64,000 bases of DNA from an uncultured Spirochaetota bacterium (GCA_963734495.1 CAVTHK010000001.1:672001-736000), one strand, 5' to 3'; shown: positions 9,215 through 46,781, counted from the stretch's first letter. Notes: generated by a model not told the origin, from the letters alone. Numbers and translations are program-made.

Positions 9215-9379
9215 TTCTACCCCCTATGTTGTTGAGCCAATGGCAGACGCGCCGCGGCAGCATTCTTGTGTGCCTGCCGGGGCGCTGTCAACGGCTCGTC
9301 AAAGACTTAATACTCTCATAACAGCAGGTTCTTCGGCCGCATTCTGTGGGAAACAGCGAGCGCGCGCGACCTCTCTCGA

Positions 9380-28988: not shown

Positions 28989-29108
28989 CGCGGGGGAGTA
29001 GGCCGCGCTGCCCCTCGGGGGGCGATCCGCCTGTGAGGGGGTGAGGAGAATGATGTTGAAGGCGGACATCGGGCGCCCTCGACGGACGCCGGCGCCGCAG
29101 CGGCGCGC

Positions 29109-29567: not shown

Positions 29568-30354
29568 GGGGGACCTCCGTGCACTCGCGCCTGACGCGTT
29601 CAATGTAGACAGCCTTGCCGTCTTCTGCAATATCCACGAGCACGCCCTGGAGCTCGAGCTTGCGCCACGAGGGCTTGGAGTTCTCGGGAACCTGCGTGAG
29701 GAACTTGCGGATCTCGATCTCCGGCTCGAAGCCGCCCACCGAGTCGAAGCTCCCCGTCCGCCCGACGTCCGTGATCACGGCGGTGCCGTCGAGCAGGCGC
29801 TCGTCGGCGGTCTGGATCCGCTGGTGCGTTCCGATGACCGCGCTCACCTGGCCCTTGAGGTAATAGAAGAGGGCCGCCTTTTCCGCCGTCGTCGTCGCGT
29901 GGTAGTCGACGATGATCCTGCGCGTGTCGCGCCTGACCCGCTCGAGCAGGCCCGGCAGCACGTGGAAGGGATTCGCCAGGTGGACGCGCCCGAACCCCGC
30001 CTGGCCGAGCACGCTGATCACCGCGACCTTCTGGGCGTCGGGGCCTGCCAGCAGCCAGCCCCTGCCGGGATTGTCCCATGGGTAGTTGCTGGGCCGCAGC
30101 ATGTAGCGCGCCTTGGAGAGGTGCTCGACGATGTCCTTTTTGTAGTAGGCGCACTCGCCGGTGGTGATGACGTCGACGCCCAGCTTGTGCAGGTAGATCG
30201 CGTGGCTCCGGCCGATGCCGAAGCCGCCGGTGGCCCCTTCGCCGTCGGCGATCACGAGCGCGACGCCGAGCTGCTCCCTGAGCGCGGGCAGCACGCTCTT
30301 GACCACGAACACGCCCGAGGAGCCGACGATCTCGCCGATGAACAGGATCTTCAG
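29530..30354 (-). CDS. ymdB: TIGR00282/YmdB family metallophosphoesterase
   Basis: KILFIGEIVG, DGEGATGGFG, LRPSNY, VDYHA, IGTH, TDVGRTG; start uncertain (CTG 30354 with SD, or GTG 30408). Confidence 0.85.
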   Translation of the reverse strand: MKILFIGEIVGSSGVFVVKSVLPALREQLGVALVIADGEGATGGFGIGRSHAIYLHKLGVDVITTGECAYYKKDIVEHLSKARYMLRPSNYPWDNPGRGWLLAGPDAQKVAVISVLGQAGFGRVHLANPFHVLPGLLERVRRDTRRIIVDYHATTTAEKAALFYYLKGQVSAVIGTHQRIQTADERLLDGTAVITDVGRTGSFDSVGGFEPEIEIRKFLTQVPENSKPSWRKLELQGVLVDIAEDGKAVYIERVRRECTEVPHDRAGDSSASEQ

Positions 30355-30475
30355 GTCGCGGCTCCTCTCCCGGCGCCCCGTGCGGCAGGGCCCGCTGCAC
30401 GCTACCACGAAACGCGGCCGCTGTGCAGGCGCGCAGGTGCGGCCTTTGATACCGGCCTCTCGGCCTCCGGCGCCT

Positions 30476-30505
30476 TTGACAAGCCGCTCGCGGTCGCGTT
30501 ACTAT
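30476..30505 (+). promoter_or_regulatory. Sigma70 promoter of tRNA-Leu
   Basis: TTGACA, 18 bp, TACTAT upstream of the tRNA. Confidence 0.6.
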
Positions 30506-30518
30506 ACGTGTCACATCC

Positions 30519-30604
30519 GCCCGGATGGTGGAATTTGGTAGACACGCTAGATTCAGGGTCTAGTCCGCAATACGCGGGTGGAGGTTCAAGTCCTCTTCCG
30601 GGCA
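30519..30604 (+). tRNA. tRNA-Leu(CAG), class II, CCA not encoded
   Basis: Acceptor stem GCCCGGA/TCCGGGC, D-loop GG, anticodon arm CTAGA-TTCAGGG-TCTAG, long variable arm, T-loop GGTTCAAGTCC. Confidence 0.97.
30551..30604 (+). repeat. attL core (3' part of tRNA-Leu)
   Basis: ATTCAGGGTC...CTTCCGGGCA, identical to 45337-45390. Confidence 0.95.
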
Positions 30605-30628
30605 AGAGTTACTGAAACGGCCCTTTTC

Positions 30629-30651
30629 CAGGGTACCAGCCAGGGTACCAG
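30629..30651 (+). repeat. Tandem CAGGGTACCAG repeats, putative integrase arm-type sites
   Basis: Two copies with 12-bp period; the 20-mer CAGGGTACCAGCCAGGGTAC recurs at 45196-45215. Confidence 0.8.
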
Positions 30652-30708
30652 GACGCCACAGAACACCACTCATCCGGGACCGGCCGCCAGGCCGTGAAGG
30701 GGGACGAG

Positions 30709-31878
30709 ATGGCGAAGAAGGCGTTCTACCTGGTCAAGCGCGGCGATCGAATCACCGAAGGCAAGCCTACCTACTACGCACGCTTCCGCACCGATGACGG
30801 CACGCTGCTCCCGTGGCAGAGCACAGGCGAGACCGTGAAGACCCGCGCAGAGCTGTGGGCGCTCAAGCGCATCAAGAGCGGCGTGGTCGGCGCCGGCGAC
30901 CGACAGACTTTTGGCAGGTTCGCTGAGGGCTGGTGGAAGCCTGAGCACCCGTACGTGCGCGGCCGGCTCGCCCGTGGCCGGCGGCTCGTGCCGACCTACC
31001 TCGTGGTCATGCAGGGCTACCTTAAGAACCACGTCCTTCCCTATTTCAGGGACCGCCGTCTCGGAGCGATTAGCCCGCGCCAGATCGAGGACTGGCTGCT
31101 CAAGCTGCGCGGCGAGGGCAAGCTGTCGGCCGCCAGCATCAATCACGCCCTGCGCTGTCTGAAGATCATGCTCCGTGAAGCCGCACGGGTCGGCCTGATT
31201 GCGCGCGACCCCTCTGCCTTCATCGGCGGATTCGCCCAAGAGGCCCCCGAGCGCGGCATCCTCACGGGACCCGAGTTGGTAGCGCTGTTCGCTGACCGAA
31301 CCATCCAGAAGGTTTGGGACGGCGACCGACTGCACTACACGTTGAACATGGTCGCAGCTTCCACCGGGCTGCGCATGGGCGAGCTGCAGGCGCTTTCCGT
31401 CGGCGCGGTCCGCCCGGGCCACCTATCGGTAACTCGCGCCTGGGAACGCCGCGGCGGCCTGCGCGAAGGGACCAAGACCGGCCGCGGGCGAATCGTGCCT
31501 GTGCCTTCGAAGGTCTCGGCCGCCCTGAACGAGCTGATCGCTGCCTCGCCCTTCCGGGAGCCTGACGACTTGGTCTTCCACAATGGCGAGGACCGGAAGA
31601 CGCCCGTCGATCAACATGACATCCTGCGCGTGTTCTATCGCGCCCTCGAGCGCATCGGCATCGAGCCGGAGCAGCGCGGAGCCCGCCGCTTGGTGTTCCA
31701 CAGCTACCGGCACGGCCTCAATACGCTTCTGCGGGCCGCCAAGGTATCGGACGCGCTCGTGCAGCGCGTGACGGGCCACCGCACCGACGCGATGACGGAG
31801 CACTACTCGCACTTCGCACTTGCTGACTTCGCCGACGTGGCGAAGGTGCAGGAGCGATTGTTCGAGGACGCACGATGA
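30709..31878 (+). CDS. int: Tyrosine recombinase/integrase
   Basis: TGLRMGEL (R), GTKT (K), FHSYRH (HxxR), TGHRT (H), EHYSH (Y); intact ORF. Confidence 0.95.
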   Translation: MAKKAFYLVKRGDRITEGKPTYYARFRTDDGTLLPWQSTGETVKTRAELWALKRIKSGVVGAGDRQTFGRFAEGWWKPEHPYVRGRLARGRRLVPTYLVVMQGYLKNHVLPYFRDRRLGAISPRQIEDWLLKLRGEGKLSAASINHALRCLKIMLREAARVGLIARDPSAFIGGFAQEAPERGILTGPELVALFADRTIQKVWDGDRLHYTLNMVAASTGLRMGELQALSVGAVRPGHLSVTRAWERRGGLREGTKTGRGRIVPVPSKVSAALNELIAASPFREPDDLVFHNGEDRKTPVDQHDILRVFYRALERIGIEPEQRGARRLVFHSYRHGLNTLLRAAKVSDALVQRVTGHRTDAMTEHYSHFALADFADVAKVQERLFEDAR

Positions 31879-32479
31879 GCAAGCCCAAAGAGCGGCCAGC
31901 CCCGCGACCGCCCGCGCCGATCACAGACAGGGCCTTCAGCCGCATCGCTGATGTCGGCAAAGTCAGACTGAGTAGCGAGCAGAAGGCGCTGATTCGCGAC
32001 CTATTGGGTCGGCTAAGCTTTGACGAGACCACAGCCCCGCCCACTCACGCTGCCATGAGGGCCAGCATGCGGCGGGCTGCGCGTGCATGTGCCGGGTGCG
32101 CCGACGTCCTGGCCGAGCTACTGCCCACGGGAGCGCGCTACGGCCTGCCCGTTGAGTTGGAAACGCTGATGCGCGACGTGCGCGATGTCGGCGAGATACT
32201 GGGGCGCGCGCTGCAGGGCTCCGCGACCATGCCGGGAACAAGGGCAACGCCGTTGCGCGAGGCGCCTTTCACCTGGGATTGTGGACAGTGTTCCGGGAGG
32301 CCGGCGGTCGCGGGCCGCGCGGCGGGTCGGGACGACCGTATTGGGCCGCGTCCAGGGCTCGCAGCGGGTTCAGCGGGTCGTTTCTCGAATTCGTCGAGGC
32401 AGTGCTCAAGGCGGGCGGGTTCGCGGTGCAATCGCGCGATGCTCTCGCTCAAGAAATACTCAAGGCCCTAAGAGGATGA
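31875..32479 (+). CDS. Hypothetical protein (probable indel near 32265)
   Basis: ATGA overlap with int; a more protein-like C-terminus (LWTVFREAGG...FLEFVEAVLK...LRG*) is in the shifted frame ending 32479. Confidence 0.55.
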
Positions 32480-32573
32480 CAATCGCTCGCGAGGTGCGGG
32501 CCGATTTCTATCCGTCCCGAAGTGTCGAAATCGTGGTTCCCTGTTGTTGCCCAAGAGGCAAGGAGAGGGAACT

Positions 32574-32843
32574 GTGTCGACAAAGGCGATTCAGGACAGC
32601 GCGATAGAGCTCCCGGAAGACCCGGCGGTATCACTGTCGGTCCGGCAGGCCGCAGCACTGCTCGGCCTACGCGAACCGACAATCCGCAAGCTCACCTGTT
32701 TGCGGTCGCTCCCGTTCTACAAGCTTGGCGGCCGGGTCGTGTTTGACCGCGAGGAGCTTCTGGCATGGCGGGCCGCCCGCCGTATCCCGACGCTCGATGA
32801 AGGCACCCCCGGTGTTGCGCGTGGCCGCAGGGGCGCTTCATGA
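32574..32843 (+). CDS. Excisionase-like helix-turn-helix protein
   Basis: LSVRQAAALLGLREPTIRKL...LPFYKLGGRVVFDREELLAW; AGGAG SD upstream of GTG. Confidence 0.88.
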   Translation: MSTKAIQDSAIELPEDPAVSLSVRQAAALLGLREPTIRKLTCLRSLPFYKLGGRVVFDREELLAWRAARRIPTLDEGTPGVARGRRGAS

Positions 32844-34389
32844 GCGGCCCCGTCCTGGAGTACGAGCAGCGGCTACTCGGTGCGGCCCTGTTCAATCCTG
32901 ACCTACTGGACTGCGGGGATATCGAGCCGCGGCTGTTCGGCGACAGGCGCAACGCCTTGATCGCCGAGACGATGCTGAGCCGAAGACGCGAGGGGAAGCC
33001 GGTCGACTTGCTCACGGTCACCGAGACGCTTAGGGGCGCGGGCCGGCTCGACGGTGCGGGCGGAGCGGCCTACGTGACCGAGCTGACCAACAACGGCGGA
33101 GTGGCGGCCCCGAACGCGAGCTACTACATCAAGGAGCTGCACGAGGCCGCGGCCCGCCGCGGGTTGGAGAAGCTGGGATCGGCGCTCACCCTGGGCTCGA
33201 GAGACGGGCGCACCGTCGAGGACCTGCTCGCCGACGCGCGCGAGTGTCTGGTGGCCGTGGCGGAGAACCTGGCCGGCGCCCGGGCGAGCGACGGGCTCAC
33301 CGTGACACGCGCGGCGGACGTGGAGCGCAAGGAACTGCGCTGGCTCTGGCAGGACCGGATACCGCTCGGCAGCTTCTCGAACTCCTCGCCGGCGACCCCG
33401 GGCTCGGCAAGAGCACTCTGACGCTCGACCTTGCCGCGCGCGTGTCGCGGGCGGCGACGTTCCCGGACGGCTCGTTGGCGCCCGCAGGCGACGTGCTCCT
33501 GCTCTCGGCCGAGGATGATCCGGGCGATACCATCCGGCCGCGACTGGAGGCCGCCGGCGCCGACCTGGGCCGAGTCTCCATCGTCATGGGGATGCGCCGC
33601 GGCGGCCGTGAAGGCTCGTTCTCACTCGTCGAGGACCTGGGCCGCCTGGAAGACGTGCTCGCCACGATGAATGCCCCGGCGCTCATCGTGATCGACCCGA
33701 TAGCCGCCTACTTGGACGGCACGGACTCGCACAAGAACGCCGACGTTCGGTGTGTGCTCGCCCCACTGGCGGCTCTCGCGGCAAAGCATGGTGTCACGGT
33801 GCTCGCGATCCACCACCTGAACAAGGGGCAGGGGCCGGCGCTCTACCGACTGTCCGGCTCTCTCGCCTTCATGGCCGCCGCTCGTGCGGTCTGGGGAGTC
33901 TGTCGCGACCCCGAGGGCGGCGAGGCCCGGCTCTTCGTACCCCCTCAAGATGAACCTTCGCTAGGGAGGCCGCAGGCTTCCGCTTCGAGGTGGCGGACGG
34001 GCCGCGCATCAAGTGGGGCGATGCGGTGTCCGCGCAGGACGCCGACCAGCTCCTGTCGAGCGAGGAGCCGGAGGAGGCGATCCCAACGTCAGGAAGCGAG
34101 CGAGTGGCTCCGGGACAGGCTGGCCGCCGGACCTGTGGCCGCACAGGAGGTAGCGCGGGCCGCACGGGCGGCCGGGATCGCAAAGCGCACGCTGGACCGC
34201 GCAAAGACAGGGCTGGGGATCATGTCGGTCAAAGACGACTTCTCCGGTCCTTGGCGTTGGGCGCTGCCCGAGCATCAGCCGCCGAAGACTGCCACCACGG
34301 CTCAAGAATGCCAAGAATCACACCGTGGCAATGTCGGCAATGTTGGGGGCTCTTGGCAACCTTCGACAAGCGCGAGGGTGCCGGTATGA
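32840..34389 (+). CDS. Replication protein: DnaB N-terminal-like domain + AAA_25/RecA-fold helicase + C-terminal winged helix (three indels)
   Basis: EQRLLGAAL...PVDLLTV...AGGAAYVTEL; RWLWQDRIP; Walker A GDPGLGKS; LSAEDD; IVIDP; IHHLNK; breaks near 33378, 33945 and 34083. Confidence 0.8.
34285..34363. repeat. Direct and inverted short iterons (putative element origin)
   Basis: AAGACTGCCA 34285 and AAGAATGCCA 34304 face TGGCAATGTC 34326, GGCAATGTT 34336 and TGGCAACCTT 34354. Confidence 0.55.
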
Positions 34390-34898
34390 CCGCCGTCGAG
34401 GGCCTGCGGAGCCGCCTGGAGGCGGCTGGTTGCCGGCTGGAACTGGCCGGCGAAGGGCTCGACATCGCAGGGGACACGGGGCGCCTCGCCCCGGAGCTGG
34501 TCGCCGAGGCCCGCCGGATCAAGCCCGCTCTGATTGTCGAGCTGCTCCGCGAGAACGTCCGGGTGCTCGCTGCCTTTATCGACGGGGACACGCGACTTGC
34601 CGAGCGACAGGCACGACTACCGGAGTACCTGGAGACGGTGGACCGGCTAACCGCAGCTGAGCAACGGCTCTTCGCTTGGTGGCGCGAGGCGGGCTTCCGC
34701 ACCTTCTGGAGCGGACTTGTCGAGGAGCTGATCCTTGTGGGCGAAGGCCTGCCACCGGCCGGTAGCGAAGCTTACACGGTCTACACCTGGCCCGAGGTCG
34801 CAGCGCTCAAGGACAGGAGTCCGGAGGACGTCGCACAGGCGCACCGGGTCAGGAAGGTCTTCCGCGGCACCGTACGCACGGCCGGGCGCGCTGGCTGA
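34386..34898 (+). CDS. Hypothetical protein with TubC-N-like N-terminus (phage replication-module type)
   Basis: ATGA overlap; LRSRLEAAGCRLELAGEGL...LAPELVAEARRIKPALI pattern. Confidence 0.65.
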   Translation: MTAVEGLRSRLEAAGCRLELAGEGLDIAGDTGRLAPELVAEARRIKPALIVELLRENVRVLAAFIDGDTRLAERQARLPEYLETVDRLTAAEQRLFAWWREAGFRTFWSGLVEELILVGEGLPPAGSEAYTVYTWPEVAALKDRSPEDVAQAHRVRKVFRGTVRTAGRAG

Positions 34899-35053
34899 GC
34901 GCATGACACAACCGGCGCCTACCAAGGTTGAGTGATTGCTGCCGCGAGCCGGACAGGGCTCTTGGCAGTCTGCTATGACGGGCATGAGGCCGCGACAACG
35001 CTCCGAGCACCGGGAATCCTGAGTCCTGGCACGGCGTAGCGCAGGGAGGACAA

Positions 35054-35521
35054 ATGAGTGAACATCGGCAGGTATCAGTCAAGCATCCGGACGGCAGCTA
35101 CATACCCATCGACGAAGACATCGCACTCCTGATCGAGTCTCTATGGTCGCTCGGCATGGCGACGACCCTCTCGTGCCAGGAGGACAGATCAGGCCTGCTC
35201 TGCGTTGTGTTCCGCAGCAGCCGCGACGTGGAGCGCTTCCTAACCATCGTAATGAGAGCCGCCGCGGGAAATGCGGAGAGGGAGCGCGTGCAAGGACGGT
35301 GGGTCTACTGCGAGGGCGATTGCCCGGAAGGCTGGTGGGTTCTCAAGCTTCTTGTTAGGGATGAGTCGGCCGTCTACGTCGGCAACACGGCGGTGGCGTT
35401 CGCAGGACCCGCGAAGGCCAGCGTCGACGTCGGTGTTTGGTTTCCTGTGTACGACTACGAATGGGTTCTCGAGGCAATGCTGGACGAGATCGAACGCCGC
35501 CGGACGCGCAGGAGGGCGTAG
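35054..35521 (+). CDS. Hypothetical protein with TYW3/Taw3-like N-terminal motif
   Basis: GGAGGA SD; IDEDIALLIESLWSLGMATTLSCQ. Confidence 0.6.
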   Translation: MSEHRQVSVKHPDGSYIPIDEDIALLIESLWSLGMATTLSCQEDRSGLLCVVFRSSRDVERFLTIVMRAAAGNAERERVQGRWVYCEGDCPEGWWVLKLLVRDESAVYVGNTAVAFAGPAKASVDVGVWFPVYDYEWVLEAMLDEIERRRTRRRA

Positions 35522-35840
35522 GGACATTTCTCTCCCACGCTCGACCGCCCGCGCGAGAATCGCTCCTGCGCCGCCTTGGGTTCGCTAGCGAGTCGCACGC
35601 ACGTCCGGCTGTGCACGACGTTTGCCGGTGCGTGGAGCCACGTGCTTGTCCCCAATCATGACCTCTGCTACGCTGGAGTGGTGATATGTTCCCCACGGGA
35701 CTGCTGTAGCAAAGAGGCGCATATTTGGGCTGTTGTGAGTGAGCAGTCCGGTCAGACGGTCGCTTCGACAACTGACTTACGGAGAACGCCGGCGGAAGCG
35801 TCTTGGAGAACTCTGCGTACAAGCCCGACTGTGACGTGAA

Positions 35841-37337
35841 ATGCCCCTGACTCTTCAAGACCTCAAATCCCACCTCTGGAACTGCGCCGAGATCCTGCGC
35901 GGCAGCGCCGTCGATCGCACGGACTGGAAGGCCTACATCCTGCCGCTGCTCTTCTTCAAGCGGATCTGCGACGTCTGGGACGAGGAGACGGCCGAGGCCG
36001 CCGAGCTCTTCGGCGACGTCGACCCCGTCGACTTCCCCGAGGTCCACCGCTTCAACGTCCCCGAGGGCTGCCACTGGCGGGACGTCCGCGAGACCCCGGC
36101 CAACATCGGCGCCGCGCTCTCGCACGCCATGCGCGAGATCGAGCGAGCCAACCCCGACACTCTCTACCGCGTCTTCGGCGCCGCCGACTGGGGCAACCGC
36201 GAGATGCTCACCGACGAGATCCTCAAGGACCTCATCGAAGGGCTCTCGGAGGTCTCGCTCGGCAACACGGCCGTCAGCTCCGACATCCTCGGCGACGCCT
36301 ACGAGTACCTGATCGGCAAGTTCGCCGACATCACCAAGCGCAAGAAGGCCGGCGAGTTCTACACCCCGCGCAGCGTCGTGCGGATGATGGTCGACATCCT
36401 CGACCCGAAGGAGGGCGAGAGCATCTACGACCCGGCCTGCGGCACGGGCGGCATGCTGCTCGGGGCGATCGAGCACGTGCAGCGCGCCGGCGGCGATCCG
36501 CGCACTTTCTTCGGCAAGATCTACGGCCAGGAGAAGAACCTCACGACCTCGTCCATCGCCCGCATGAACCTCGTGCTCCACGGCATCGAGGACTTCCAGA
36601 TCGTGCGCGAGGACACGCTCCGCAGCCCGGCCTTCACGGACTCGAGCACCGGCGGTCTCGCCACCTTCGACTGCGTGATCGCCAATCCGCCCTTCTCGCT
36701 CAAGGAATGGGGCCGCGAGATCTGGGAGGCCGACCCGTGGGGCCGTGCCGCCTTCGGCCTCCCGCCGGAGAGCTACGGCGACTACGCCTGGGTCCAGCAC
36801 ATGGTCGCTCGATGGCCGCGGGCACCGGCCGCATGGCGGTGGTGCTCCCGCAGGGGGCGCTCTTCCGCAAGGGCGCGGAAGGCAGAATCCGCAGGCGCTC
36901 CTGGAGCAGGACCTCATCGAGGCCGTCATCGGCCTCGCCCCGAACATCTTCTACGGCACCGGTCTCGCGCCGGCCGTCGTGATCCTCCGCCGCACGAAGC
37001 CCGCCGACGCGGAAGGAGAAGGTCTGATCATCGACGCCTCGAGCCTCTTCCGCAAGGGCCGCGCCCAGAACTTCCTCGACCCCGAGCACGCCGAGCAGAT
37101 CGTCGCCTGGGTGCGCGCCTTCGAGGATGTGGAGGACCGCGCCAAGGTCGTCAGCCTCGACGAGATCAAGGCCGAGGACTGGACGCTCAACATCTCCCGC
37201 TACGTGCTGCCGCCCATCGGCGAGGAGATCCCGCCGCTGCCGGAGGCCGTCGCCGCCTTCAAGCAGGCGCTCGCCGAGGCCCGGCGGCCGAGGACCACCT
37301 GCGCGAGGTCCTGACCGAGGGAGGCTGGCTCGCATGA
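35841..37337 (+). CDS. hsdM: Type I R-M methyltransferase subunit M1 (NPPF, predicted m6A); indels in the 3' third
   Basis: LWNCAEILRG, GEFYTPR, YDPACGTGG, ANPPF; VVLPQGALFR and IEAVIGL lie in shifted frames. Confidence 0.9.
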   Translation: MPLTLQDLKSHLWNCAEILRGSAVDRTDWKAYILPLLFFKRICDVWDEETAEAAELFGDVDPVDFPEVHRFNVPEGCHWRDVRETPANIGAALSHAMREIERANPDTLYRVFGAADWGNREMLTDEILKDLIEGLSEVSLGNTAVSSDILGDAYEYLIGKFADITKRKKAGEFYTPRSVVRMMVDILDPKEGESIYDPACGTGGMLLGAIEHVQRAGGDPRTFFGKIYGQEKNLTTSSIARMNLVLHGIEDFQIVREDTLRSPAFTDSSTGGLATFDCVIANPPFSLKEWGREIWEADPWGRAAFGLPPESYGDYAWVQHMVARWPRAPAAWRWCSRRGRSSARARKAESAGAPGAGPHRGRHRPRPEHLLRHRSRAGRRDPPPHEARRRGRRRSDHRRLEPLPQGPRPELPRPRARRADRRLGARLRGCGGPRQGRQPRRDQGRGLDAQHLPLRAAAHRRGDPAAAGGRRRLQAGARRGPAAEDHLREVLTEGGWLA

Positions 37338-38854
37338 GCAAGGCCCCCGAACACCTGAGCCAGCAGGAACTCGAGTCCTACCTCTGGGGCGCGGCCAAGC
37401 TGCTGCGGGGCCTGATCGACGCCGGCGACTACAAGCAGTACGTCTTCCCGCTGCTCTTCTTCAAGCGGCTCTCCGACGTGTGGGACGAGGAGTACCAGAG
37501 CCGCCCTCGACGAGACCGGCGACGCGGCCTACGCCCGCGCGACGGCCGACGACCGCTTCGCGATCCCCGACGGCGCGCACTGGTCCGACGTGCGCAGCGC
37601 CTCCCGCGACGTCGGCCGGGCGCTGCTGAACGCCTTCCGCGCCATCGAGGCGGCCAACCCGGAGCGCCTGTCCGGCGTCTTCGGCAACGCCTCCTGGACC
37701 GACAAGGCGCAGCTGCCCGACGAGACGCTCAAGAACCTGATCGAGCACTTCTCGCAGCACACGCTGAGCCTGGCCGCCGTCCCCGAGGACGAGCTCGGCA
37801 ACGGCTACGAGTACCTGATCAAGCAGTTCGCCGACGACAGCGGCCACACGGCGCAGGAGTTCTACACCAACCGCACGCTCGTCCACCTGATGACGCAGAT
37901 GCTCGAGCCGCAGGCCGGGCGAGCGCATCTACGACCCCACCGTCGGCACCGGCGGCATGCTCATCTCGGCGCTGGCCGAGGTGAAGCGCCGGGGCGGCGA
38001 CACGCGCACGCTCGGCCTCTACGGCCAGGAGCTGATCCACATCACGGCCGCCATCGCCCGGATGAACCTCGTGCTGCACGGCGTCGAGGACTTCGAGATC
38101 GTCGCCGGCAACACGCTGAGCAACCCGGCCTTCATCGAGCGCGACCGCCTGCGGACCTTCGACGTGGTCCTCGCCAATCCGCCGTACTCGATCAAGAAGT
38201 GGAACCGCGAGGCGTGGCAGAGCGATCCCTGGGGCCGCAACTTCCTCGGCACGCCGCCCCAGGGCCGCGCCGACTACGCCTTCTTCCAGCACATCCTGAA
38301 GAGCCTGGACCCGAAGACCGGCCGCTGCGCGATCCTCTTCCCGCACGGCGTGCTCTTCCGCAACGAAGAGGCGGAGATGCGGCGCAAGCTCGTCGAGTCG
38401 GACCTGCTCGAGTGCGTCCTCGGCCTGGGGCCGAACCTCTTCTACAACTCGCCGATGGAAGCCTGCGTCGTGATCTGCCGGACGCAGAAGCCCGCCGACC
38501 GCCAAGGGAAGATCCTCTTCATCGACGCCGTGCACGAGGTGGCGCGGGAGCGGGCGCAGAGCTTCCTGAAGCCGGAGCACCAGGAGCGGATCCTGGCGGC
38601 CTATCAGGCGTTCGCCGACGAGCCCGGCTTCGCCACGGTCGCGACGATCGCGGAGGTGCTCGCAGAAGGACGGCAACCTGTCGATCCCGCGCTACGTCAG
38701 GCCGATCGGGAATGGGGCAGGCAACGGTGGCGACCAGGACCTGAAGACGGCGTGGGCCGCATTCGACGCCAGCGGGCGGGAGTTCTGGCAGCAGATGGAC
38801 GCGCTGGTGGACATGCTCGACGGCGTCGTCGCCGAGGAGGCGCACGATGCCTGA
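37334..38854 (+). CDS. hsdM: Type I R-M methyltransferase subunit M2 (NPPY, predicted m4C); indels near 37500, 37920 and 38665
   Basis: LWGAAKLLRG, AQEFYTNR, YDPTVGTGG, ANPPY, FPHGVLFR. Confidence 0.9.
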
Positions 38855-40074
38855 GATCGCGTCCAAGAAGCGGGTGGACCCGCGTCGCCTTCGGCGATGT
38901 CGTGCGACAGGTCAGGGACCGCGTCGATCCCGGACGAAGCCGGACTTGACCGCTACGTCGGCCGGCGAGCACATGGACACCGACGATCTGCGGATTCGAC
39001 GGTGGGGGACGATCGGCGACGGCTATCTCGGACCGCATTTCACATGCGCTTCAAGCCGGGGCACGTCCTCTATCGGATCGCGCCGGACCTATCAGCGCAA
39101 GGTCGCCGTCGCCGACTTCGATGGCGTATCTCGGCGAACACGACCTATCGTCCTCGAGCCGAAGGACCCGAAGTCCTGCTGCCCGAGTTGCTGCCGTTCA
39201 TCATGCAGACCGAGTCCTTCCACGAGCACTCGGTCGAGCAATCGAAGGGCTCGCTCAATCGCCTATGATCAACTGGTCAGACCTCGCGTGGTACGAGTTC
39301 GCCCTGCCGCCGCTGGAGGAGCAGCGGCGGATTGCGCAGACTGCTGCGCGCGGCCACGGATGTGGCCCAGTATCATGATGAGGCGGCTGCGCGTGTTCAG
39401 ATGGTCTCCGAGAGCATGCTGCTCCGATACTTTCAGGGAGCCCACCTCGGGGGCTTGATCCACGACGAGCGATTCGGCCGATACTCTCCCAGTCTGCCTC
39501 TCACACCTGTCGGAGAACTGTTGGTCGCGACGCAGTACGGGCTTTCGATGCCCTCCACCACAGGCGGCAGTTCCGGATGCTCCGCATGATGGATATGTCG
39601 GATGGCTCGGCAACTGACGACAGTCTCTGTTCCGTGGACCTGTCCGATGAAGATTTCAGTCGATACCGGCTTGAGCACGGCGATTTGCTCTTCAATCGCA
39701 CAAACAGTCATGAGCTGGTCGGACGTACCGGTGTTTACAGATTGGAGGGAGATCACGTGTTCGCCTCGTACCTTGTTCGTTTGAAGACCGACGCGAGCGC
39801 GCTCCTACCGGACTATCTCTGTGCCTTCCTAATGCTCCACTTGGGCGTCGACAAGTCATGCGATTTGCAACACGCGGCGTTAGCCAGACGAACGTCAATA
39901 CATCGAATCTGCGGAAAGTGCTGATTCCATTGCCGCCGATTGCGTATCAGCATACGGTTGTCGAGCGGATTGAGCGCCTGCGATGTGCGCGTCGATCTCA
40001 TCAGAGGAGAGCTAATCAAGCGCGAAGGCTCGCGGCGCAGGCTCGGGAACGACTTCTTGGGGACGACACGATGA
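38847..40074 (+). CDS. hsdS: Type I R-M specificity subunit (many indels)
   Basis: Reconstructed WTRVAFGDVV...FALPPLEEQRRIA (TRD1 + conserved helix) and GDLLFNRTNS...IPLPPIAYQ (TRD2). Confidence 0.85.
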
Positions 40075-43039
40075 CCTTCAACGAAGCCAACACCGTCGAA
40101 GCCTTCATCCGCGACCGACTCTGCGGCGGCATCACCCACCACACCGCCGTCGGTCCCGGCCTCGCCCGCCGCCACGGCCAGATCTCCGGCCTCGGCTGGC
40201 ACTTCCTCGCCCCGCAGAACCTTCCGCGCCAGCCGCACGAAGTCCTCGTCGAGGATCACCTGCGCGAGGCGCTGATCCGGCTGAACCCGGAGATCGCCGC
40301 CCAGCCCGACCGGGCCGACGATGTGCTCTACAAGCTGCGCGCCATCATCATGGGCGTGCGCAGCGACGGCCTCGTCAAGGCCAACGAGGAGTTCGCCGCC
40401 TGGCTCACCGGCGAGCGGTCGATGCCCTTCGGCGAGAACGGCGAGCATGTCACCATCCGCCTGATCGACTTCGCCGATCTCGAGCAGAACCAGTACGTCG
40501 TCACCACGCAGTACACCGTACCGCGCCGGGGCCACCGAGAAGCGGGCCGACCTCGTGCTGCTCGTCAACGGCATCCCGCTGGTCGTGATCGAGGCGAAGA
40601 CGCCGTCCGCGCGAGCCAGAGCTGGCTCGACGGGGCGCTCCAGGTGCACGACGACTACGAGCGCAACGTCCCCGAGCTGTTCGTGCCGAACGTGTTCTCC
40701 GTCGCCACCGAGGGCAAGGAGTTCCGCTACGGCTCGATCGGGCTGCCGGTCGAGCTCTGGGGACCGTGGCGGATCGAGGCCGACACGAAGACGCCGGCCC
40801 TGCAGCAGATCGAGAAGGCGGTCGCGTCGATGCTGCGGCCGCACGTCGTGCTCGACCTGCTCGCCAACTTCACCGCCTACGCCACCGACAAGAAGAAGCG
40901 CCGCATCAAGATCATCGCCCGCTACCAGCAGTACGACGGCGCGAACAAGATCGTCGAGCGCGTGGTGGCCGGGCACCCGAAGAAGGGCCTGATCTGGCAC
41001 TTCCAGGGCTCGGGCAAGTCGCTGCTGATGCTCTTCGCGGCGCGCAAGCTGCGCCTGCACCCGGCGCTCAAGAATCCGACCGTGATGATCGTGGTGGACC
41101 GCATCGATCTCGACACCCAGATCTCCGAGCACCTTCTACGCCGCCGACACGCCGAACCTGGTGAAGGCCGACAGCCGCGCCGAGCTGCAGCGGCTGCTGG
41201 CGCAGGACGTGCGCAAGATCATCATCACGACGATCTTCAAGTTCGGCGAGGCCGACGGCGTCCTCAACGACCGCAGCAACATCATCGCCATGGTCGACGA
41301 GGCCCACCGCACGCAGGAAGGCGACCTCGGCCGCAAGATGCGCGAGGCGCTGCCCAACGCGTTCCTGTTCGGCCTGACCGGCACGCCGATCAACCGCGCC
41401 GACCGCAACACCTTCTACGCCTTCGGCGCCGACGAGGACGAGCGCGGCTACATGAGCCGCTACGGCTTCGAGGAGTCGATCCGCGACGGCGCCACGATGC
41501 CGCTGCACTTCGAGCCGCGCCTGCTCGAGCTGCACATCGACAAGGAGGCGATCGACGAGGCCTTCAAGGAGCTGACCGGCGGCCTGAGCGACCTCGACAA
41601 GGACCAGCTCGCCAAGACCGCCGCGAAGATGGCCGTGCTGGTGAAGTCGCCGGAGCGCATCCAGAAGATCTGCGCGGACATCGCCCAGCACTTCCAGGAG
41701 AAGGTCGCGCCCGAACGGCTTCGGGGCGCAGGTCGTCACCTTCGACCGCGAGAGCTGCGTGCTCTACAAGAAGGCGCTCGACGAGCACCTGCCGCCGGAG
41801 GTCTCCGACATCGTCATGACGGTGAACAGCGGCGAGGACGAGTACGCGCCCTACCGCCGCGAGCGGGACGCCGAGGAGAAGCTCCTCGACCGCTTCCGCG
41901 ACCCGGCCGATCCGCTGAAGATCCTGATCGTCACCTCGAAGCTGCTGACCGGCTTCGACGCGCCGATCCTGCAGGCGATGTACCTCGACAAGCCGCTGCG
42001 CGACCACACGCTGCTGCAGGCCATCTGCCGCACGAACCGCCCCTACGGCGAGGCGAAGACCCACGGCCTGATCGTCGACTACCTCGGCGTCTTCGACGAC
42101 GTGGCCCAGGCGATCCAGTTCGACGAGGAGGGCATCACCCGGGTCGTCACCAACATCAACGAACTCGTCGGCAAGCTGCCCGAGGCCATGCAGAAGTGCC
42201 TGGCCTACTTCCCGGGCGTCGATCGCACCGTCACCGGCTACGAGGGGCTGATCGCCGCGCAGGACTGCCTGCCCAACAACGACACGCGCGACCGCTTCGC
42301 CGCCGACTACAGCTACCTGAGCCGCCTCTGGGAGGCGATCTCGCCCGATCCGGTCCTGAGCCAGTACGAGACCGACTACCGCTGGCTGTCGCAGGTCTAC
42401 GAGTCGGTGAAGCCCTCGACCGGCACGGGCAAGCTGCTCTGGCACGCGCTCGGGCCGAAGACGATCGAGCTGATCCACGAGCACGTCCACGTCGACGCGA
42501 TCCGCGACGACCTCGACACGCTGGTCCTGGACGCCGACCTGCTCGAAGCCGTGCTCGGCACGCCCGACCCGGACAAGAAGGCCAAGGAGATCGAGATCAA
42601 GGTCGCCCGGCGCCTGCGCAAGCGGCTGCACGACCCGCGCTTCAAGGCGCTCGGCGAGCGGCTCGAGGCCCTGAAGGAGCGGCACGAGCAGGGGCTGCTC
42701 CTCAGCATCGACTTCCTGAAGGCGCTGCTCGAGCTGGCCCGCGACGTCGTCGCCGCCGAGCAGGCCGCCGAGCCCATCGACGACGAGACGCTCGGCAAGG
42801 CCGCGCTCACCGAGCTCTTCGAGGAGGCGAAGAACGACGAGACGCCGATCATGGTCGAGCGCGTCGTCAACGACATCGACGAGATCGTGCGCTACGTCCG
42901 CTTCGACGGCTGGCAGAACACCCACGCCGGCGAGCGCGAGGTCAAGATGGCGCTGCGCAAGACGCTGTTCAAGTACAAGCTCCACCAGGATCAGGAGCTG
43001 TTCGACCGGGCCTACGGGTACATCCGGCAGTACTACTGA
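40071..43039 (+). CDS. hsdR: Type I R-M restriction subunit (indels near 40520, 40605, 41128 and 41715)
   Basis: VNGIPLVVIEAK, HFQGSGKS, VDEAHR, LTGTP, LLTGFDAP, QAICRTNR. Confidence 0.92.
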
Positions 43040-43223
43040 CCGACCGGGCGGAAGTAGCTGTCCGAGGCGTGGGCGATAGCCTGACGCCGGCTACGGTTCG
43101 TCCTTCCCATTGTGTTTCTGGAGTTCGGCAATGTAGGCGACCGGGTGCTGCGCCCCGCAGGGCTGCCTCTACGAGAGTGAGCGTCAAAGAGAACACCCGA
43201 TACGCCAATGCACTGGGGGGTGT

Positions 43224-43252
43224 TTGCAGTGTGACGATACTCGTAGTAGACT
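43224..43252 (+). promoter_or_regulatory. Sigma70-type promoter of the TA pair
   Basis: TTGCAG, 17 bp, TAGACT; inverted repeat CACTG-N11-CAGTG (43211-43231) overlaps the -35. Confidence 0.55.
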
Positions 43253-43295
43253 TTGACTGTCGAAACTCCCAAGCCACACGGGCGGGGCGGAAATC

Positions 43296-43853
43296 ATGTT
43301 CCAGTACAACGCTGAGAGGACTGCCCAAGCCGCGGCCCATCTGATCCGGCGCGCGGGCGGCCGTATCAACTACATGAAGCTCATCAAGCTCCTCTACATG
43401 GCTGATCGCGGCTCCTTGGCGAGGTGGGGTCAGCCGATCACAGGTGACCGCTTCGTGTCGATGCCGCACGGCCCTGTTCTGACCCGCGTGTACGATCAGA
43501 TCACCACGGGACCGGACCCAGCCGTGTCACTCGCCCCGTGGTTTCGACTGATCGAGCGCGAAGGCTACGATGCGAGGAATGTCTCAGACGATCCGGCTAC
43601 CGACGAACTGAGCCGCCGCGAAGTGGCGCTCCTGGACTCCGTCTTCGACGAGTTCCGAGACATGGACCAGTGGCAAATGCGTGACTATTGCCACGCCGAG
43701 TTGCCCGAGTGGCAAGACCCACAAGGGTCGAGCTATCCCATCCCCTTCGAGCGGGTCCTACAAGTGCTTGGCAAGAGCGCCGAGGAAATCCGCGAGGCCC
43801 ACGAGGAAGCTGCCTTCATGGACTTCGCGCGCGAAGCTCTCGGCGCGGAATGA
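43296..43853 (+). CDS. Panacea-domain (DUF4065/SocA-like) antitoxin
   Basis: MKLIKLLYMADR...GQPITGDRFVSMPHGPV...YCHAELPEW. Confidence 0.88.
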   Translation: MFQYNAERTAQAAAHLIRRAGGRINYMKLIKLLYMADRGSLARWGQPITGDRFVSMPHGPVLTRVYDQITTGPDPAVSLAPWFRLIEREGYDARNVSDDPATDELSRREVALLDSVFDEFRDMDQWQMRDYCHAELPEWQDPQGSSYPIPFERVLQVLGKSAEEIREAHEEAAFMDFAREALGAE

Positions 43854-44212
43854 ATGTAGGTGACACTTTCCTCATGGAGCACCCCAGGGGGCGCCGGAAG
43901 CACCTGTTCTTCGTGGTGTTCAAGACAGAGACCGACCGGCTACTGCTTGTTCATGTTTCCTCCATTAAGCTCGGGCGCGACTGCGACACGAGCTGCGTTG
44001 TTCGACGCGGCGAGCACCCCTTCATCAAGCACGATTCCTTCGTGGTGTACTCGGCGGCCATGTTTGCCATAGAGAGTCATGTCGAGGCACAGATTCGTGC
44101 TGGAATCTGTCGACCGCAAGCGTCCGCAAGCCCGGCGCTGCTCAAGCGCATCAGCGACGGCGCACACGTCTCAGCGGCACTGCCTGGGAAATATGCGTCC
44201 TACTTCCCGTGA
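43850..44212 (+). CDS. Putative toxin, PemK/MazF-like fold
   Basis: ATGA overlap with Panacea gene; VGDTFL...KHLFFVV...VHVSS...GEHPFIKHDSFVVY. Confidence 0.6.
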   Translation: MNVGDTFLMEHPRGRRKHLFFVVFKTETDRLLLVHVSSIKLGRDCDTSCVVRRGEHPFIKHDSFVVYSAAMFAIESHVEAQIRAGICRPQASASPALLKRISDGAHVSAALPGKYASYFP

Positions 44213-44285
44213 CGGTAGCGATGCCAAGACACGACTGGGGTGCCGCCGGTCGGCTGTTCACAGGGGAGGACTCGGCCGCGGCGTG

Positions 44286-44816
44286 TCACTTGTCGCACGC
44301 TATGGTCACAACGCCAGCCACTGCACCGAGGCAGATGATCAACGTAATGCCCAAGGCCATCCAGCAGTTGCGCGCGAAGCGCTCGACCACGAGCCGAGGC
44401 GCGCAGGTCTTGCCCAACCGCTTCGCCTTCTCTTCCCGGCTGAGATACAGTGATCGCCACGACCAATTGAACCTGCTCAGGTCGCCCAGGGTGCTGAATT
44501 GCACGTACACGCCGTGAGCCGCGGTGAACATAATCAGCATAAATGCCACCCATTTCACGATCGCGTAGAACGGAGGCGGCAGGTATGGGTGTTGGCTCTG
44601 GAAAAGAAGCACGCAGCTGCCGTCTATGAGGAGAGCGTAGTAGGCGGCCTGCTTGTGGTTGGTCTTGACCCACTGGATTTCTGCCTGGCCGGGTCCCGTG
44701 TCCTGCCCCGCGACGCGCTCCGGGATACGCTCCCTGTTGCGTTCGACCCAGCGCCTGTGCGTGCGCGTCCAGAGCCGGTCCGACCTCTTGGTCGCTCGCG
44801 TCCGCCTGTTCGCCAT
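44286..44816 (-). CDS. Hypothetical membrane protein (2-3 TM)
   Basis: 176-aa ORF with hydrophobic segments; own promoter TTGACG, 17 bp, GATGAT, 5 nt, ATG (44850-44822). Confidence 0.6.
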   Translation of the reverse strand: MANRRTRATKRSDRLWTRTHRRWVERNRERIPERVAGQDTGPGQAEIQWVKTNHKQAAYYALLIDGSCVLLFQSQHPYLPPPFYAIVKWVAFMLIMFTAAHGVYVQFSTLGDLSRFNWSWRSLYLSREEKAKRLGKTCAPRLVVERFARNCWMALGITLIICLGAVAGVVTIACDK

Positions 44817-45148
44817 AGGACATCATCGGAGCGACGGTCGGACCCGTCAAGGCAGTAGCATCGCCGCCGGAGAGCGTGGCGGCGGCCTTGTAGCGCTTCC
44901 GAGGTAGGGCTTGCCACGTGAAAGCGAGGCCGCGATCGCGCGTGAAGCGATGTTGCCCGGCGACCGACTTTTGGCAGATTATTGGCGCTCAGGTCGAGCT
45001 TCGAGCGCAGCCGCGGCAGACACGCGTAGCGGCCCGAGAACCCGTCCGGGGTATTAGGACGCGGCAAACGTCCCGCCGACGCGCTGGTGGCCCGCGATCA
45101 CGTGGGCCGGGGCACTCTCGCACACGGTTCGGGACTCCGCTTTGAGTT

Positions 45149-45215
45149 TGGTACCCTGAGCGTTCGCAAAGCCATATGAAATCAACGTCTCGAATCAGGG
45201 TACCAGCCAGGGTAC
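45149..45215. repeat. Arm-type repeats on the attR side
   Basis: Inverted copy TGGTACCCTG 45149-58; tandem CAGGGTACCAGCCAGGGTAC 45196-45215; IHF-like AATCAAcgtcTCG 45180-92 between them. Confidence 0.75.
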
Positions 45216-45257
45216 TAAAATCGTAGAAATGTCCGTAGACGTCAGTATCGGCCTGTA

Positions 45258-45286
45258 TTGACAAGACACTGTAAAATACCTACGTT
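45258..45286 (+). promoter_or_regulatory. Outward-facing sigma70-type promoter in the attR arm
   Basis: TTGACA, 17 bp, TACGTT. Confidence 0.5.
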
Positions 45287-45336
45287 TGTATCACCATGGA
45301 TCGAGTGGTCAATGATGGTACAAGGGGGCCGATTAC

Positions 45337-45390
45337 ATTCAGGGTCTAGTCCGCAATACGCGGGTGGAGGTTCAAGTCCTCTTCCGGGCA
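45337..45390 (+). repeat. attR core (duplicated tRNA-Leu 3' half)
   Basis: 54/54 identity to 30551-30604; the 5' half of the tRNA is absent. Confidence 0.95.
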
Positions 45391-45507
45391 GTCTTAATCC
45401 CTTGTTTGTAACGAATTAGAAGAACGCCCCCAACTCCCCGGGTTTACAGAACCCGGATCTGGTCTATGCTTTGGTTTTCAAGAGTGAGACTGAAGGAGGC
45501 CGGGGCA

Positions 45508-45901
45508 TGCGAAGAAGCCCTTCCAGGTTCTTCGCCACAGCGCCAAGGCCTCCAGGCATGCGTTCTACGTGTCCTTCCGCGTGCCCGACGGCACCGTCGC
45601 CTCGCCGCGTACCAGCCGCCAGACCTCGCGAGGAGCGGCGGAGACTTGGGCCATCCAGCAGATCAACGAGGGCAAGATCCCAGTCGTCCAGAAGGCCGCC
45701 CCCCGGGAACGTCCGTGAAACTTGTGGCGTCTCCTCACGGATTTCTGGGACTACGACACGTCCAGGCACGTTCGTGGCAAGCTCGCCCGAGGTGGGAGGA
45801 TGAGCTTGACTAGCGACACACACCCGGGGGTCGAAGCCGTCGAGGTCGAGGAGCCTGCGGAACTCCTCGACGGTGAGCGTGCCCCGCTTGCCGCGGCCCA
45901 T
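45508..45901 (+). pseudogene. Degenerate second integrase (N-terminal part on +, internal fragment inverted)
   Basis: + strand AKKPFQVL...FYVSFRVPDG...AETWAIQQI...DFWDYDTSRHVRGKLARG aligns by eye with the intact Int N-terminus; - strand 45901-45812 KRGTLTVEEFRRLL resembles Int ERGILTGPELVAL. Confidence 0.75.
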
Positions 45902-46065
45902 GATCTTGCAGTAGAGCCACCCGCCACAAATCGGCGCCTTTCGTCCGCCATTTCACAATTGACGCGATATCGGGGCAGTCACTAATCTAGACGCATCGTG
46001 ATCTCACTTGACGGCAGTCGGTGGAGGGCATCGCCGGAATGTGAGCAAGCGACGAGGAGCGGAAG

Positions 46066-46758
46066 TTGAGAAAGTCAGCGTTCATTCTGGGCTGTGGCCT
46101 GCTAGTGGCCGCATGCGGTCGGTCGATGGAGCTGAAGGGGACAACCCTGAATTCCCCACGGCTCGCGTCTGACTTCGCACTCGTCGACCAGCACGGCAAG
46201 CCGTTCCGCCTGGCTGATGCGCGCGGAAAGGTCGTGGTCCTTTCGTTCCTCTACACCCATTGTACAGACGTCTGTCCCTTCGAGGCGCTGAAGATCAAGG
46301 CCGCGATTCCCCTGCTTGGCTCCGACGTCAACGATGTCGCTTTTGTGGCCGTGACGACAGATCCCGAACGCGACACGCAGCAGGTCATGGCTGACTACAG
46401 CCGTGAGGCAGGGCTTTTCGACAGTTGGCACTTCCTCACAGGACCAGTCAAAGACGTCAAACAGGTCTGGGCCGACTACGGCATCGGCGTGGCTGTGAGC
46501 AAGGAGGACCACGACACCGGCGGTTCGGCCGCCGGCAAATCCCAGGGTCGCGAAGAGCCCCCCACACAGGGATTGACTAACGATGACCTCAATACTGCAG
46601 GTCGATTGATCGACCGTTTCGGCGGCGGATATGAAGTGTCACACAGCGCCCCGTACTGGTTCATTGATCGATCAGGAAAGCTTTGCGCGACCATGGACGC
46701 CGACGTGCTGCCCGGCGATATCGCGTACAATGTGCGGGTACTTCTGCACGGACGATAG
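46066..46758 (+). CDS. SCO1/SenC family lipoprotein
   Basis: Lipobox LVAAC, YTHCTDVCP, TDPERDT, WHFLTG, VSHS. Confidence 0.9.
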   Translation: MRKSAFILGCGLLVAACGRSMELKGTTLNSPRLASDFALVDQHGKPFRLADARGKVVVLSFLYTHCTDVCPFEALKIKAAIPLLGSDVNDVAFVAVTTDPERDTQQVMADYSREAGLFDSWHFLTGPVKDVKQVWADYGIGVAVSKEDHDTGGSAAGKSQGREEPPTQGLTNDDLNTAGRLIDRFGGGYEVSHSAPYWFIDRSGKLCATMDADVLPGDIAYNVRVLLHGR

Positions 46759-46781
46759 ACTCACCCGGACTTAGTAGTGCT

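Follow-up and report, generated by a model that had tools for sequence, protein, structure and literature searches.

A bounded island in a spirochaete tRNA-Leu gene

We analyzed a 64-kb window (C1:672001-736000) of the genome of an uncultured Spirochaetota bacterium (18 contigs, 5.38 Mb, GC 67.6%, completeness rated 83%) and, within it, an element of about 14.8 kb enclosed by two direct repeats. The repeats extend over 57 nt with 1 mismatch and contain an exact core of 54 bp, as stated in an original prediction made from the sequence of this stretch. They derive from the 3' part of a tRNA-Leu(CAG) gene, the left copy being this tRNA from the anticodon loop through the 3' end. The gene is the sole tRNA of the window according to ARAGORN, and in all five order-level relatives inspected it adjoins the same metallophosphoesterase gene. 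A search of 29000-47000 against Rfam at gathering thresholds gave zero matches, not even to the tRNA-Leu called by ARAGORN at 30519-30604.

Reading inward from the tRNA, the element encodes a tyrosine integrase, a helix-turn-helix (HTH) protein of the excisionase/AlpA type, a replicative helicase with DnaB_N and AAA_25 domains and a 170-aa protein, interspersed with two orphan genes and followed by a type I restriction-modification (R-M) system, a Panacea-domain toxin-antitoxin (TA) pair and a probable membrane protein. All listed genes lie on the plus strand with the exception of the last, orf176 (Table 1).

The ends of the element also carry an 8-mer, CAGGGTAC, which occurs five times in the 64-kb window, with all five copies at the element ends (0.53 copies expected; none of 100 shuffles reached five). 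Judged by their sequence and placement, these copies look like arm-type integrase sites and are listed as putative.

Table 1. Features of the element and its integration site, with positions counted from the first letter of the window.
Feature	Position	Strand	Evidence and remarks
tRNA-Leu(CAG), integration target	30519..30604	+	ARAGORN
attL core (left attachment site)	30551..30604		exact 54-bp repeat
Two tandem 12-bp putative arm-type repeats with CAGGGTAC	30628..30651	+	25 bp inside attL
Tyrosine integrase (int)	30694..31878	+	PF00589 1.3e-18; phrog_1 8.5e-42; one open frame
orf198	31875..32471	+	start overlaps int stop by ATGA; second half seems out of frame
HTH_17 excisionase / AlpA-type regulator	32544..32843	+	PF12728 2.5e-11; TIGR01764 2e-10
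DnaB_N + AAA_25 replicative helicase	32840..34389	+	DnaB_N 5.8e-15; AAA_25 6.6e-30; four frame pieces
orf170	34386..34898	+	start overlaps helicase stop; 170 aa; N-terminal beta-hairpin docking-type fold (predicted)
orf155	35054..35521	+	phrog_6638 1.8e-5 only
hsdM1 (type I methyltransferase)	35841..37337	+	PADLOC MTase_I; frame shifts ~36807, ~36879
hsdM2, tandem paralogue	37340..38850	+	PADLOC MTase_I; frame shifts ~37500, ~37914, ~38661
hsdS (specificity subunit)	38850..40060	+	PADLOC Specificity_I pieces in open reading frames of three frames; NF007278; at least 4 pieces
hsdR (restriction subunit)	40060..43039	+	PADLOC REase_I; frame shifts ~40515, ~40599, ~41133, ~41706
Panacea-domain (PanA/SocA-type) antitoxin	43296..43853	+	PF13274 1e-22; phrog_1281
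120-aa partner, candidate toxin	43850..44212	+	phrog_19071 7.4e-19; ATGA overlap with Panacea gene stop
orf176, probable membrane protein, 176 aa	44286..44816	-	hydropathy peaks at residues 82-103, 148-176
Three putative arm-type CAGGGTAC sites (1 inverted, 2 tandem)	45151..45215		122-186 bp inside attR
attR core (right attachment site)	45337..45390		exact 54-bp repeat

Backbone genes

The integrase, the excisionase-like protein and the helicase had all been named in the original prediction, and each was supported by domain matches (PF00589; PF12728 and TIGR01764; DnaB_N and AAA_25). The only terminase match in the element, to phrog_57 at 2.5e-4, stems from the HTH of the excisionase. The prediction had counted six backbone genes, of which four stand: only int, the HTH gene, the helicase and orf170 are common to the closest relatives described below, and orf198 and orf155 are without counterpart in any related locus examined. 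Judged by this comparison of loci, the true backbone is therefore the set of these four genes.

The product of orf170 belongs to a family so rare that 1.84 billion sequences yield 49 representatives at E<=0.001, and is 50-59% identical in the three closest relatives (L086, L087, L088). Since its gene is coupled to that of the helicase, this arrangement suggests that orf170 is a replication accessory protein. It had been described as TubC-N-like, a label that holds in part. No Pfam match was found even at E<=10. In the predicted structure (pLDDT 86.6), residues 1 to ~55 match beta-hairpin docking domains of non-ribosomal peptide synthetases in a Foldseek search of the PDB (5t81: probability 1.00, root-mean-square deviation 1.4 over 53 columns, E 0.056). 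This short match, together with an Atlas lead, is what remains of the label; the PDB search gave nothing else for the model, and a search against viral structures gave nothing at E<=0.001. A complex prediction for the helicase and orf170 of L088 scored 0.01, a value that permits no verdict.

A motif in the C-terminal tail of the helicase was considered as the docking partner of orf170 and dropped because just 3 of the 120 best homologues have it. A short repeated Gly-Asn/Pro-Leu/Val motif does end the helicases of the window (34300-34389), of L088 (5100-5212) and of P0001, P0005 and P0037, and is absent from the other 117 of those 120 homologues.

Cargo genes

The cargo named in the original prediction was borne out by PADLOC, by PF13274 and, for orf176, by its hydropathy. 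The type I R-M system is complete, with two hsdM genes, hsdS and hsdR (PADLOC MTase_I twice, Specificity_I and REase_I; NCBIfam TIGR00497 and TIGR00348). The two hsdM genes (35841-38850) share 73-83% nucleotide identity, and contigs of three soil metagenome runs, from three studies, span their junction; the tandem M pair therefore belongs to this R-M type, and the double-M layout is a conserved feature of it. Soil and sediment runs are rich in sequences 85-99% similar to the R-M genes. As in PanA-PanT TA systems, the Panacea-domain protein is coupled to a partner gene, and toxicity and neutralization are predicted here from the genes alone.

GC content at third codon positions was 0.97-1.0 in the R-M genes, 0.84-0.89 in the integrase and helicase genes and ~0.77-0.82 in the TA region. 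Since it differs between modules in this way, the cargo is a mosaic. Scans of all open reading frames (ORFs) of the element with Pfam, PHROGs, NCBIfam and PADLOC found no capsid, terminase, portal, tail, relaxase, type IV secretion system (T4SS) or cI-type gene, in agreement with what had been read from the sequence at the outset.

Frame shifts and assembly quality

Several element genes are distributed over more than one reading frame, each of the four R-M genes over two to four. The DnaB_N and AAA_25 domains of the helicase lie in different frames here, in one protein in relatives P0005, P0037 and P0116, and in one frame in L088. The frame of the window's gene changes near 33377-33381, 33945, 33965 and 34085, with conserved amino acid sequence resuming in each new frame. 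Together with the shifts in hsdM1, hsdM2 and hsdR, which were located with a codon-position GC model, at least 13 single-base shifts fall within these four genes, none of them with an in-frame stop; hsdS is also in at least four pieces.

The notion that the shifts are special to the element, prompted by flanks that looked clean at first, was dropped after a genome-wide count. With a candidate defined as a same-strand frame switch without a stop within 150 nt, the host genome contains 1337 candidates, or 2.5 per 10 kb (per-10-kb median 1, 95th percentile 9, maximum 22). At 7 per 10 kb, the element is equalled or exceeded by 10.8% of 10-kb windows. Twelve of 200 strong candidates were drawn randomly, and the six without a stop in either piece were sent to Pfam. 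Five of these six were a single gene split over two frames, namely those for pyrimidine nucleoside phosphorylase, SecD, a U32 peptidase, GyrB and AcrB (examples, L166-L171: C7:251070-252384, C2:153421-154795, C9:160578-162375, C1:663050-664655 and C1:511134-512850).

Because a living cell cannot have broken gyrB and secD genes, the assembly must carry consensus indels, and because gyrB, secD and acrB are split in the same way elsewhere, the shifts within the element are likely of the same kind. We infer that they are very probably assembly consensus indels like those in the rest of the genome. Indels this pervasive mean that any pseudogene call, and the 83% completeness figure for this assembly, need caution.

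Outside the element, the minus strand of the window at 25787-28951 holds one 1054-aa ORF that combines a full CTP synthase with LptC-like and LptA-like parts, with lptB adjoining. The frame model switches at 26019, 26625 and 26907 within this ORF, in which assembly indels, rather than a fusion, have probably joined pyrG with lptC/lptA.

Closest relatives and other spirochaete loci

The most similar helicases were those of L086 and L087, ~65% identical to that of the window and 84% identical over the core. A syntenic locus is L088, a 10.3-kb metagenome contig with exact 52-bp repeats 7592 bp apart. Its integrase is 63% identical over 367 aa, its HTH protein 45% (at the same position), its helicase ~50% and its orf170 50%; its arm repeats are similar and keep the same 141-142-bp spacing to the right repeat as in the window. 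The cargo differs, consisting of an ORF6N anti-repressor-like gene and two small secreted proteins. No packaging gene was seen in L086, L087 or L088. Neither copy of the 52-bp repeat of L088 (440-660, 8040-8140) lies within a complete tRNA, ARAGORN finding none, and this contig may be a tandem array of islands with the tRNA beyond the contig end.

Within the order of the host, a helicase relative was present in 11 of 91 other genomes, nine of them among the 21 genomes of one genus. The sole same-genus genome (99% complete) yielded no helicase relative; the DNA around its tRNA-Leu is different, and none of the window's right-flank genes lies within 10 kb of it.

L186 (G428:C9:153100-171100), from another family of the order, has its integrase gene immediately after the orthologous tRNA-Leu(CAG). 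Behind it come an ORF that overlaps the end of int, the gene of a 680-aa AAA_25 helicase, that of a ParA-type ATPase, and cargo unrelated to that of the window. Within 18 kb at this locus no structural gene was seen, nor was a second repeat found. Besides ParA, the L186 cargo comprises an M48/U49-type peptidase, a Ser/Thr kinase and a radical SAM + DUF6375 pair. Of the 21 genomes of that genus, 9 hold relatives. In G422, of the same genus as G428, the helicase lies 6.4 kb from the same flanking gene.

Two further loci come from the host's order. L009, from an uncultured member of the Spirochaetaceae, is a 10.2-kb island in tRNA-Thr. In L007, from a Spirochaetaceae metagenome-assembled genome, genes for a prohead protease (9.3e-39) and an HK97 capsid (2.5e-33) directly follow the helicase, on a contig of only 6.3 kb that fits an island or a prophage alike. 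The expectation that the same backbone would recur with different cargo at tRNAs elsewhere, spirochaetes included, is thus realized, for related backbones on small tRNA-bounded elements, in L009, L186 and L088.

Two observations concern integration sites more generally. At L188 (G411:C13), in another genome of the order, an 18-nt exact copy of the tRNA-Leu(CAG) 3' end lies at 8969-8986, ~170 bp from the tRNA at 9155-9238, and may be the scar of a former integration. In the host genome itself, a second tyrosine integrase, 32% identical, is encoded near the end of contig C7 (G000:C7:459873-460571) and may mark another island.

The helicase family across bacteria

Among 8000 scored proteins, 1724 were homologues of the helicase at E<=1e-5. 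Loci of the family number 527 in genome contigs from many phyla (Patescibacteria, Planctomycetota, Acidobacteriota, Pseudomonadota and others), with a further 431 matches in metagenome contigs and 164 in IMG/VR. In the host phylum the helicase is rare, occurring in 2 of 400 sampled genomes at E<=1e-10. Given this distribution over phyla, and contrary to the original idea of a minimalist family in Spirochaetota, this is not a spirochaete family. A homologous tyrosine integrase lies within 10 kb of the helicase in 46 of 80 other loci, and a large serine recombinase takes its place in 12.

A survey for bounded islands covered 82 loci; three without a called helicase ORF were skipped and three with repeats of 15-16 nt were dropped. 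In twelve of the 82, repeats of 22-50 nt derived from a tRNA enclose the island, whose size ranges from 5.7 to 14.8 kb. The original prediction had allowed that such backbones might always be embedded in prophages or integrative and conjugative elements (ICEs); these small tRNA-bounded relatives show that they are not.

According to Pfam and PHROGs, four or five of the twelve carry terminase or capsid genes, within 8.5-14.8 kb: L013 encodes a large terminase subunit (TerL) and a scaffold protein, along with a PIN/DUF433 pair and a NikA-like mobilization protein; L020 encodes TerL; L054 a capsid-protease fusion and a small terminase subunit (TerS); L076 TerS; and L079 has a weak TerS-like match. 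By the same scans, no terminase or capsid gene is present in L008, L009, L023, L035, L059, L062 or L067, and likewise none in L088. BLAST searches with the TerS and capsid genes identified further copies near helicases in L015, L048, L036, L060 and L066. Among the other cargo are a Dcm/Vsr system (L035) and an Mrr-type nuclease (L009); in L011, L030 and L073 the neighbourhood of the helicase includes HsdR homologues.

A 31-row helicase tree intersperses cargo-only with packaging-bearing elements, L008 and L013 for instance being sisters (support 100/99); the window pairs with L086 only. More distantly, the AAA_25 core matches 'AAA family ATPase' genes in 20 plasmid records and primase/helicases of Microbacterium phages. 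Taken together, cargo islands, mini-elements with terminase or capsid genes and phage-sized contigs from many phyla are connected by a single helicase lineage.

The AAA_25 core is also 34-38% identical to proteins of four unannotated 4-6-kb 'Bacteriophage sp.' records from animal and human faecal viromes (MT839352, MT838296, MT837713, MT839393), which may be small packaged elements of the wider family.

Nature of the element

We consider it a good probability that the island is a site-specific integrative element of ~14.8 kb in tRNA-Leu(CAG), one of a very widespread family of ~6-15-kb tRNA islands built on an integrase, an HTH_17 protein and a DnaB_N-AAA_25 helicase, and that it is of the cargo-only type, like cargo-carrying tycheposons and islands resembling PICMI (phage-inducible chromosomal minimalist islands). 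The element is real, well bounded and probably intact, and represents a new host phylum for a known general kind. In the life cycle proposed for it, the integrase would bind the 54-bp core together with the CAGGGTAC arm sites at either end and, with the HTH protein and perhaps orf198 as well, would excise the element as a circle, which the helicase and its coupled 170-aa partner would then replicate. Going by the functions of the families concerned, the cargo (the R-M system with its two M genes, the Panacea pair and the membrane ORF) would protect the host cell and stabilize the element. For transfer from cell to cell, hitch-hiking in the capsid of a helper phage is the leading candidate, and we put it forward only as such.

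A number of observations weigh against this interpretation. The pattern expected of an attP junction (right-arm end, 54 N, left-arm start) has 0 matches in IMG/VR and 0 in the host's own assembly. Among indexed sequencing runs, the best share of words of 32800-42799 was 0.10, and the Logan contigs of four runs cover mainly the R-M genes, at 85-99% likeness and from other organisms. Neither iterons nor an origin emerged from a repeat search of the non-coding stretches, which yielded the arm sites only, and no primase domain was recognized beside the helicase in the ORF scans. Several genes are orphans: orf198 has no family in the Pfam and PHROGs scans; the Panacea partner has none in Pfam or PADLOC; and orf176 has none in Pfam, PHROGs, NCBIfam or PADLOC. 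For orf155, the earlier designation as TYW3-like goes back to an Atlas lead of 0.80 and was not upheld, there being no homologue, no Pfam match at E<=10 and only a poor single-sequence model (pLDDT 54.6). Finally, the assembly argument relies on a frame-switch detector that produces false positives: one of the six candidates checked was a true gene boundary, and at least one of six flagged in the window flanks was false too.

The original prediction went further and held the element to be a minimalist phage satellite. On this account, drawn by analogy with what has been shown for PICMI, a helper phage would trigger the HTH/AlpA protein, and the element would be excised, replicated and packaged in helper capsids without a packaging gene of its own. 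One part of the claim stands, namely a discrete, capsid-less element with a replication module and defence cargo. The gene order, up to the defence hotspot before the far att site, is that given for PICMI115 in the sections of PMC10803314 drawn on here. Relatives point the same way: repeat-bounded elements of 8.5-14.8 kb carry TerS, TerL or capsid genes, L007 has its prohead protease and HK97 capsid after the helicase, and packaging-bearing and cargo-only members are close to one another on the helicase tree. The other part of the claim fared less well. In the element itself no TerS, capsid, Sid/Cpm-like or pac/cos feature was recognized, and its closest relatives, L086-L088, are equally without a packaging gene. 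As for a helper phage, HK97 capsid, TerL_ATPase and portal (PF05065, PF03354, PF04860) were unmatched in the host's own genome, which is 83% complete and frame-shifted, and the missing attP junction counts here as well. The combination of integrase, alpA and replicase alone is moreover judged unreliable in the relevant part of PMC10085698. A true satellite is a tentative possibility that draws on analogy and on the genes carried by relatives.

We regard as somewhat unlikely the alternative of an integrative plasmid-like element that replicates as an episome and spreads via vesicles, transformation or conjugative mobilization, with no link to phages. The element does possess its own helicase module, and among its relatives L186, at the same tRNA, encodes a ParA-type partition ATPase and L013 a NikA-like mobilization protein. 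The 20 plasmid records matched by the AAA_25 core fit this alternative too, as do tycheposons, which are described as occurring in vesicles too in the portion of 10.1101/2020.12.28.424599 used here. However, the element was found to contain no relaxase, origin of transfer, type IV coupling protein or partition gene, and the plasmid matches cover 41-60% of the query only, at 29-44% identity.

It is improbable that the element is a decaying, immobile relic with true frame shifts, a dead helicase and R-M system, and only int, the HTH gene and the TA pair surviving. The distribution of the shifts would suit such a relic, with at least 13 in the helicase, hsdM1, hsdM2 and hsdR and none in int, the HTH gene, orf170 and the Panacea gene (~2.9 kb), as would the first impression that the flanking host genes were clean; the frame-shift test is indirect, which counts against our own reading as well. 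Yet the essential genes gyrB and secD are split likewise elsewhere in the assembly, the density of events in the element is ordinary for this genome, and all events are indels that bring no in-frame stop, each shifted piece preserving the amino acid sequence well. That the element is what remained of a prophage after deletion of its structural genes is very improbable, for even if predicted viral contigs in IMG/VR hold distant helicase relatives at 32-57% identity (30 of the 80 listed, out of 164, being on contigs of at least 30 kb) and the core matches Microbacterium phage primase/helicases, exact att repeats enclose the element as it stands, the twelve relatives with tRNA repeats of their own are all 5.7-14.8 kb, L088 holds the same backbone in 7.6 kb, and no structural-gene fragment was found in the element with Pfam or PHROGs.

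Implications

An active element would mean that small self-replicating tRNA islands serve as vehicles for the exchange of defence systems among uncultured free-living spirochaetes, and such islands would be of the same kind as those in marine cyanobacteria and vibrios. A literature search joining 'phage satellite' and 'spirochaet' found no paper, most subscription journals lying outside the search. Because close kin carry capsid and terminase genes, the helicase family offers a handle for finding satellites in phyla without described ones. Useful by-products of the analysis are the evidence of an indel-ridden assembly and a helicase lineage that spans island, mini-element and phage-sized contexts.

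A bolder proposal, to which we give rather little weight, is that the DnaB_N/AAA_25 tRNA islands form one pan-bacterial helper-dependent lineage, whose members that lost their packaging genes, like this element, are still carried in phage capsids. With the element, a phage satellite lineage would then be known from Spirochaetota for the first time, a PICMI-like minimalist in which the int-overlapping gene would aid excision and the docking protein orf170 would recruit the helicase.

Comparison with known integrative elements

ICEs and integrative and mobilizable elements differ from the element, in which the Pfam, PHROGs and NCBIfam scans found no relaxase, coupling protein or T4SS. With P4-like satellites it shares only an integrase and an alpA-type gene; psu, delta, sid, epsilon and the alpha primase were not found in it with Pfam or PHROGs. 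Phage-inducible chromosomal islands of the capsid-forming kind (cfPICI) are distinguished by capsid, portal, head-tail adaptor/connector and terminase genes, none of which was found in the element; among its relatives, L054, L013 and L007 carry capsid, scaffold or terminase genes.

PICI, the phage-inducible chromosomal islands, are defined in SatelliteFinder by five core components, and integrase, AlpA and primase/replicase alone make up a Type C that was set aside as unreliable, possibly representing defective or other elements (from the part of PMC10085698 drawn on here). The element, too, has defence cargo and, beside att and in the same orientation, genes for an integrase and an alpA-type regulator and a replication gene, the last encoding a DnaB_N/AAA_25 helicase in which no primase domain was found. 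It lacks a small terminase and a capsid-morphogenesis gene, and with at most three of the five core components would rank as Type C (PMC10085698, same part).

The likeness to PICMI is closer. In the sections of PMC10803314 used here, PICMI are ~6-kb islands beside fis in Vibrionaceae that consist of int, a gene overlapping it on which excision depends, alpA, a primase with DUF3987/DUF5906 and a defence hotspot, and their helper-dependent excision and packaging have been demonstrated. The same order is found here: int, a gene overlapping it by ATGA, an alpA-type HTH gene, a replication gene, a defence hotspot and a direct repeat. The PICMI model asks for int co-localized with AlpA (PF05930 or PF12728), and the element has this pairing through PF12728. 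Type I R-M is listed among the cargo of PICMI-like elements, as in the element, and these sections describe PICMI, again like the element, as being without a packaging or capsid-remodelling gene (PMC10803314). The element differs in its 14.8-kb size, its place in tRNA-Leu(CAG), its DnaB_N/AAA_25 helicase and its spirochaete host, and is known here from genes alone; PF13148 (DUF3987) and PF19263 (DUF5906) gave no match among its ORFs in the Pfam scans.

Tycheposons, described from Prochlorococcus and other marine bacteria, target tRNAs and were found in vesicles as well as capsids (10.1101/2020.12.28.424599, in the portion drawn on here). They differ in carrying nutrient-gene cargo, in contrast to the defence genes (R-M, TA) of the element, whose host is a high-GC spirochaete; the two are likened by description only. 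What the element shares with them is a tyrosine integrase that targets the 3' portion of a tRNA gene, a partial tRNA copy at either end, an excisionase, a helicase and variable cargo. Integration and replication modules are common to cargo-carrying tycheposons and to PICI-like ones that have terS or a capsid gene, according to the same portion of that source (10.1101/2020.12.28.424599), and the same sharing of modules between cargo-only and terS- or capsid-bearing members is seen in the present helicase family.

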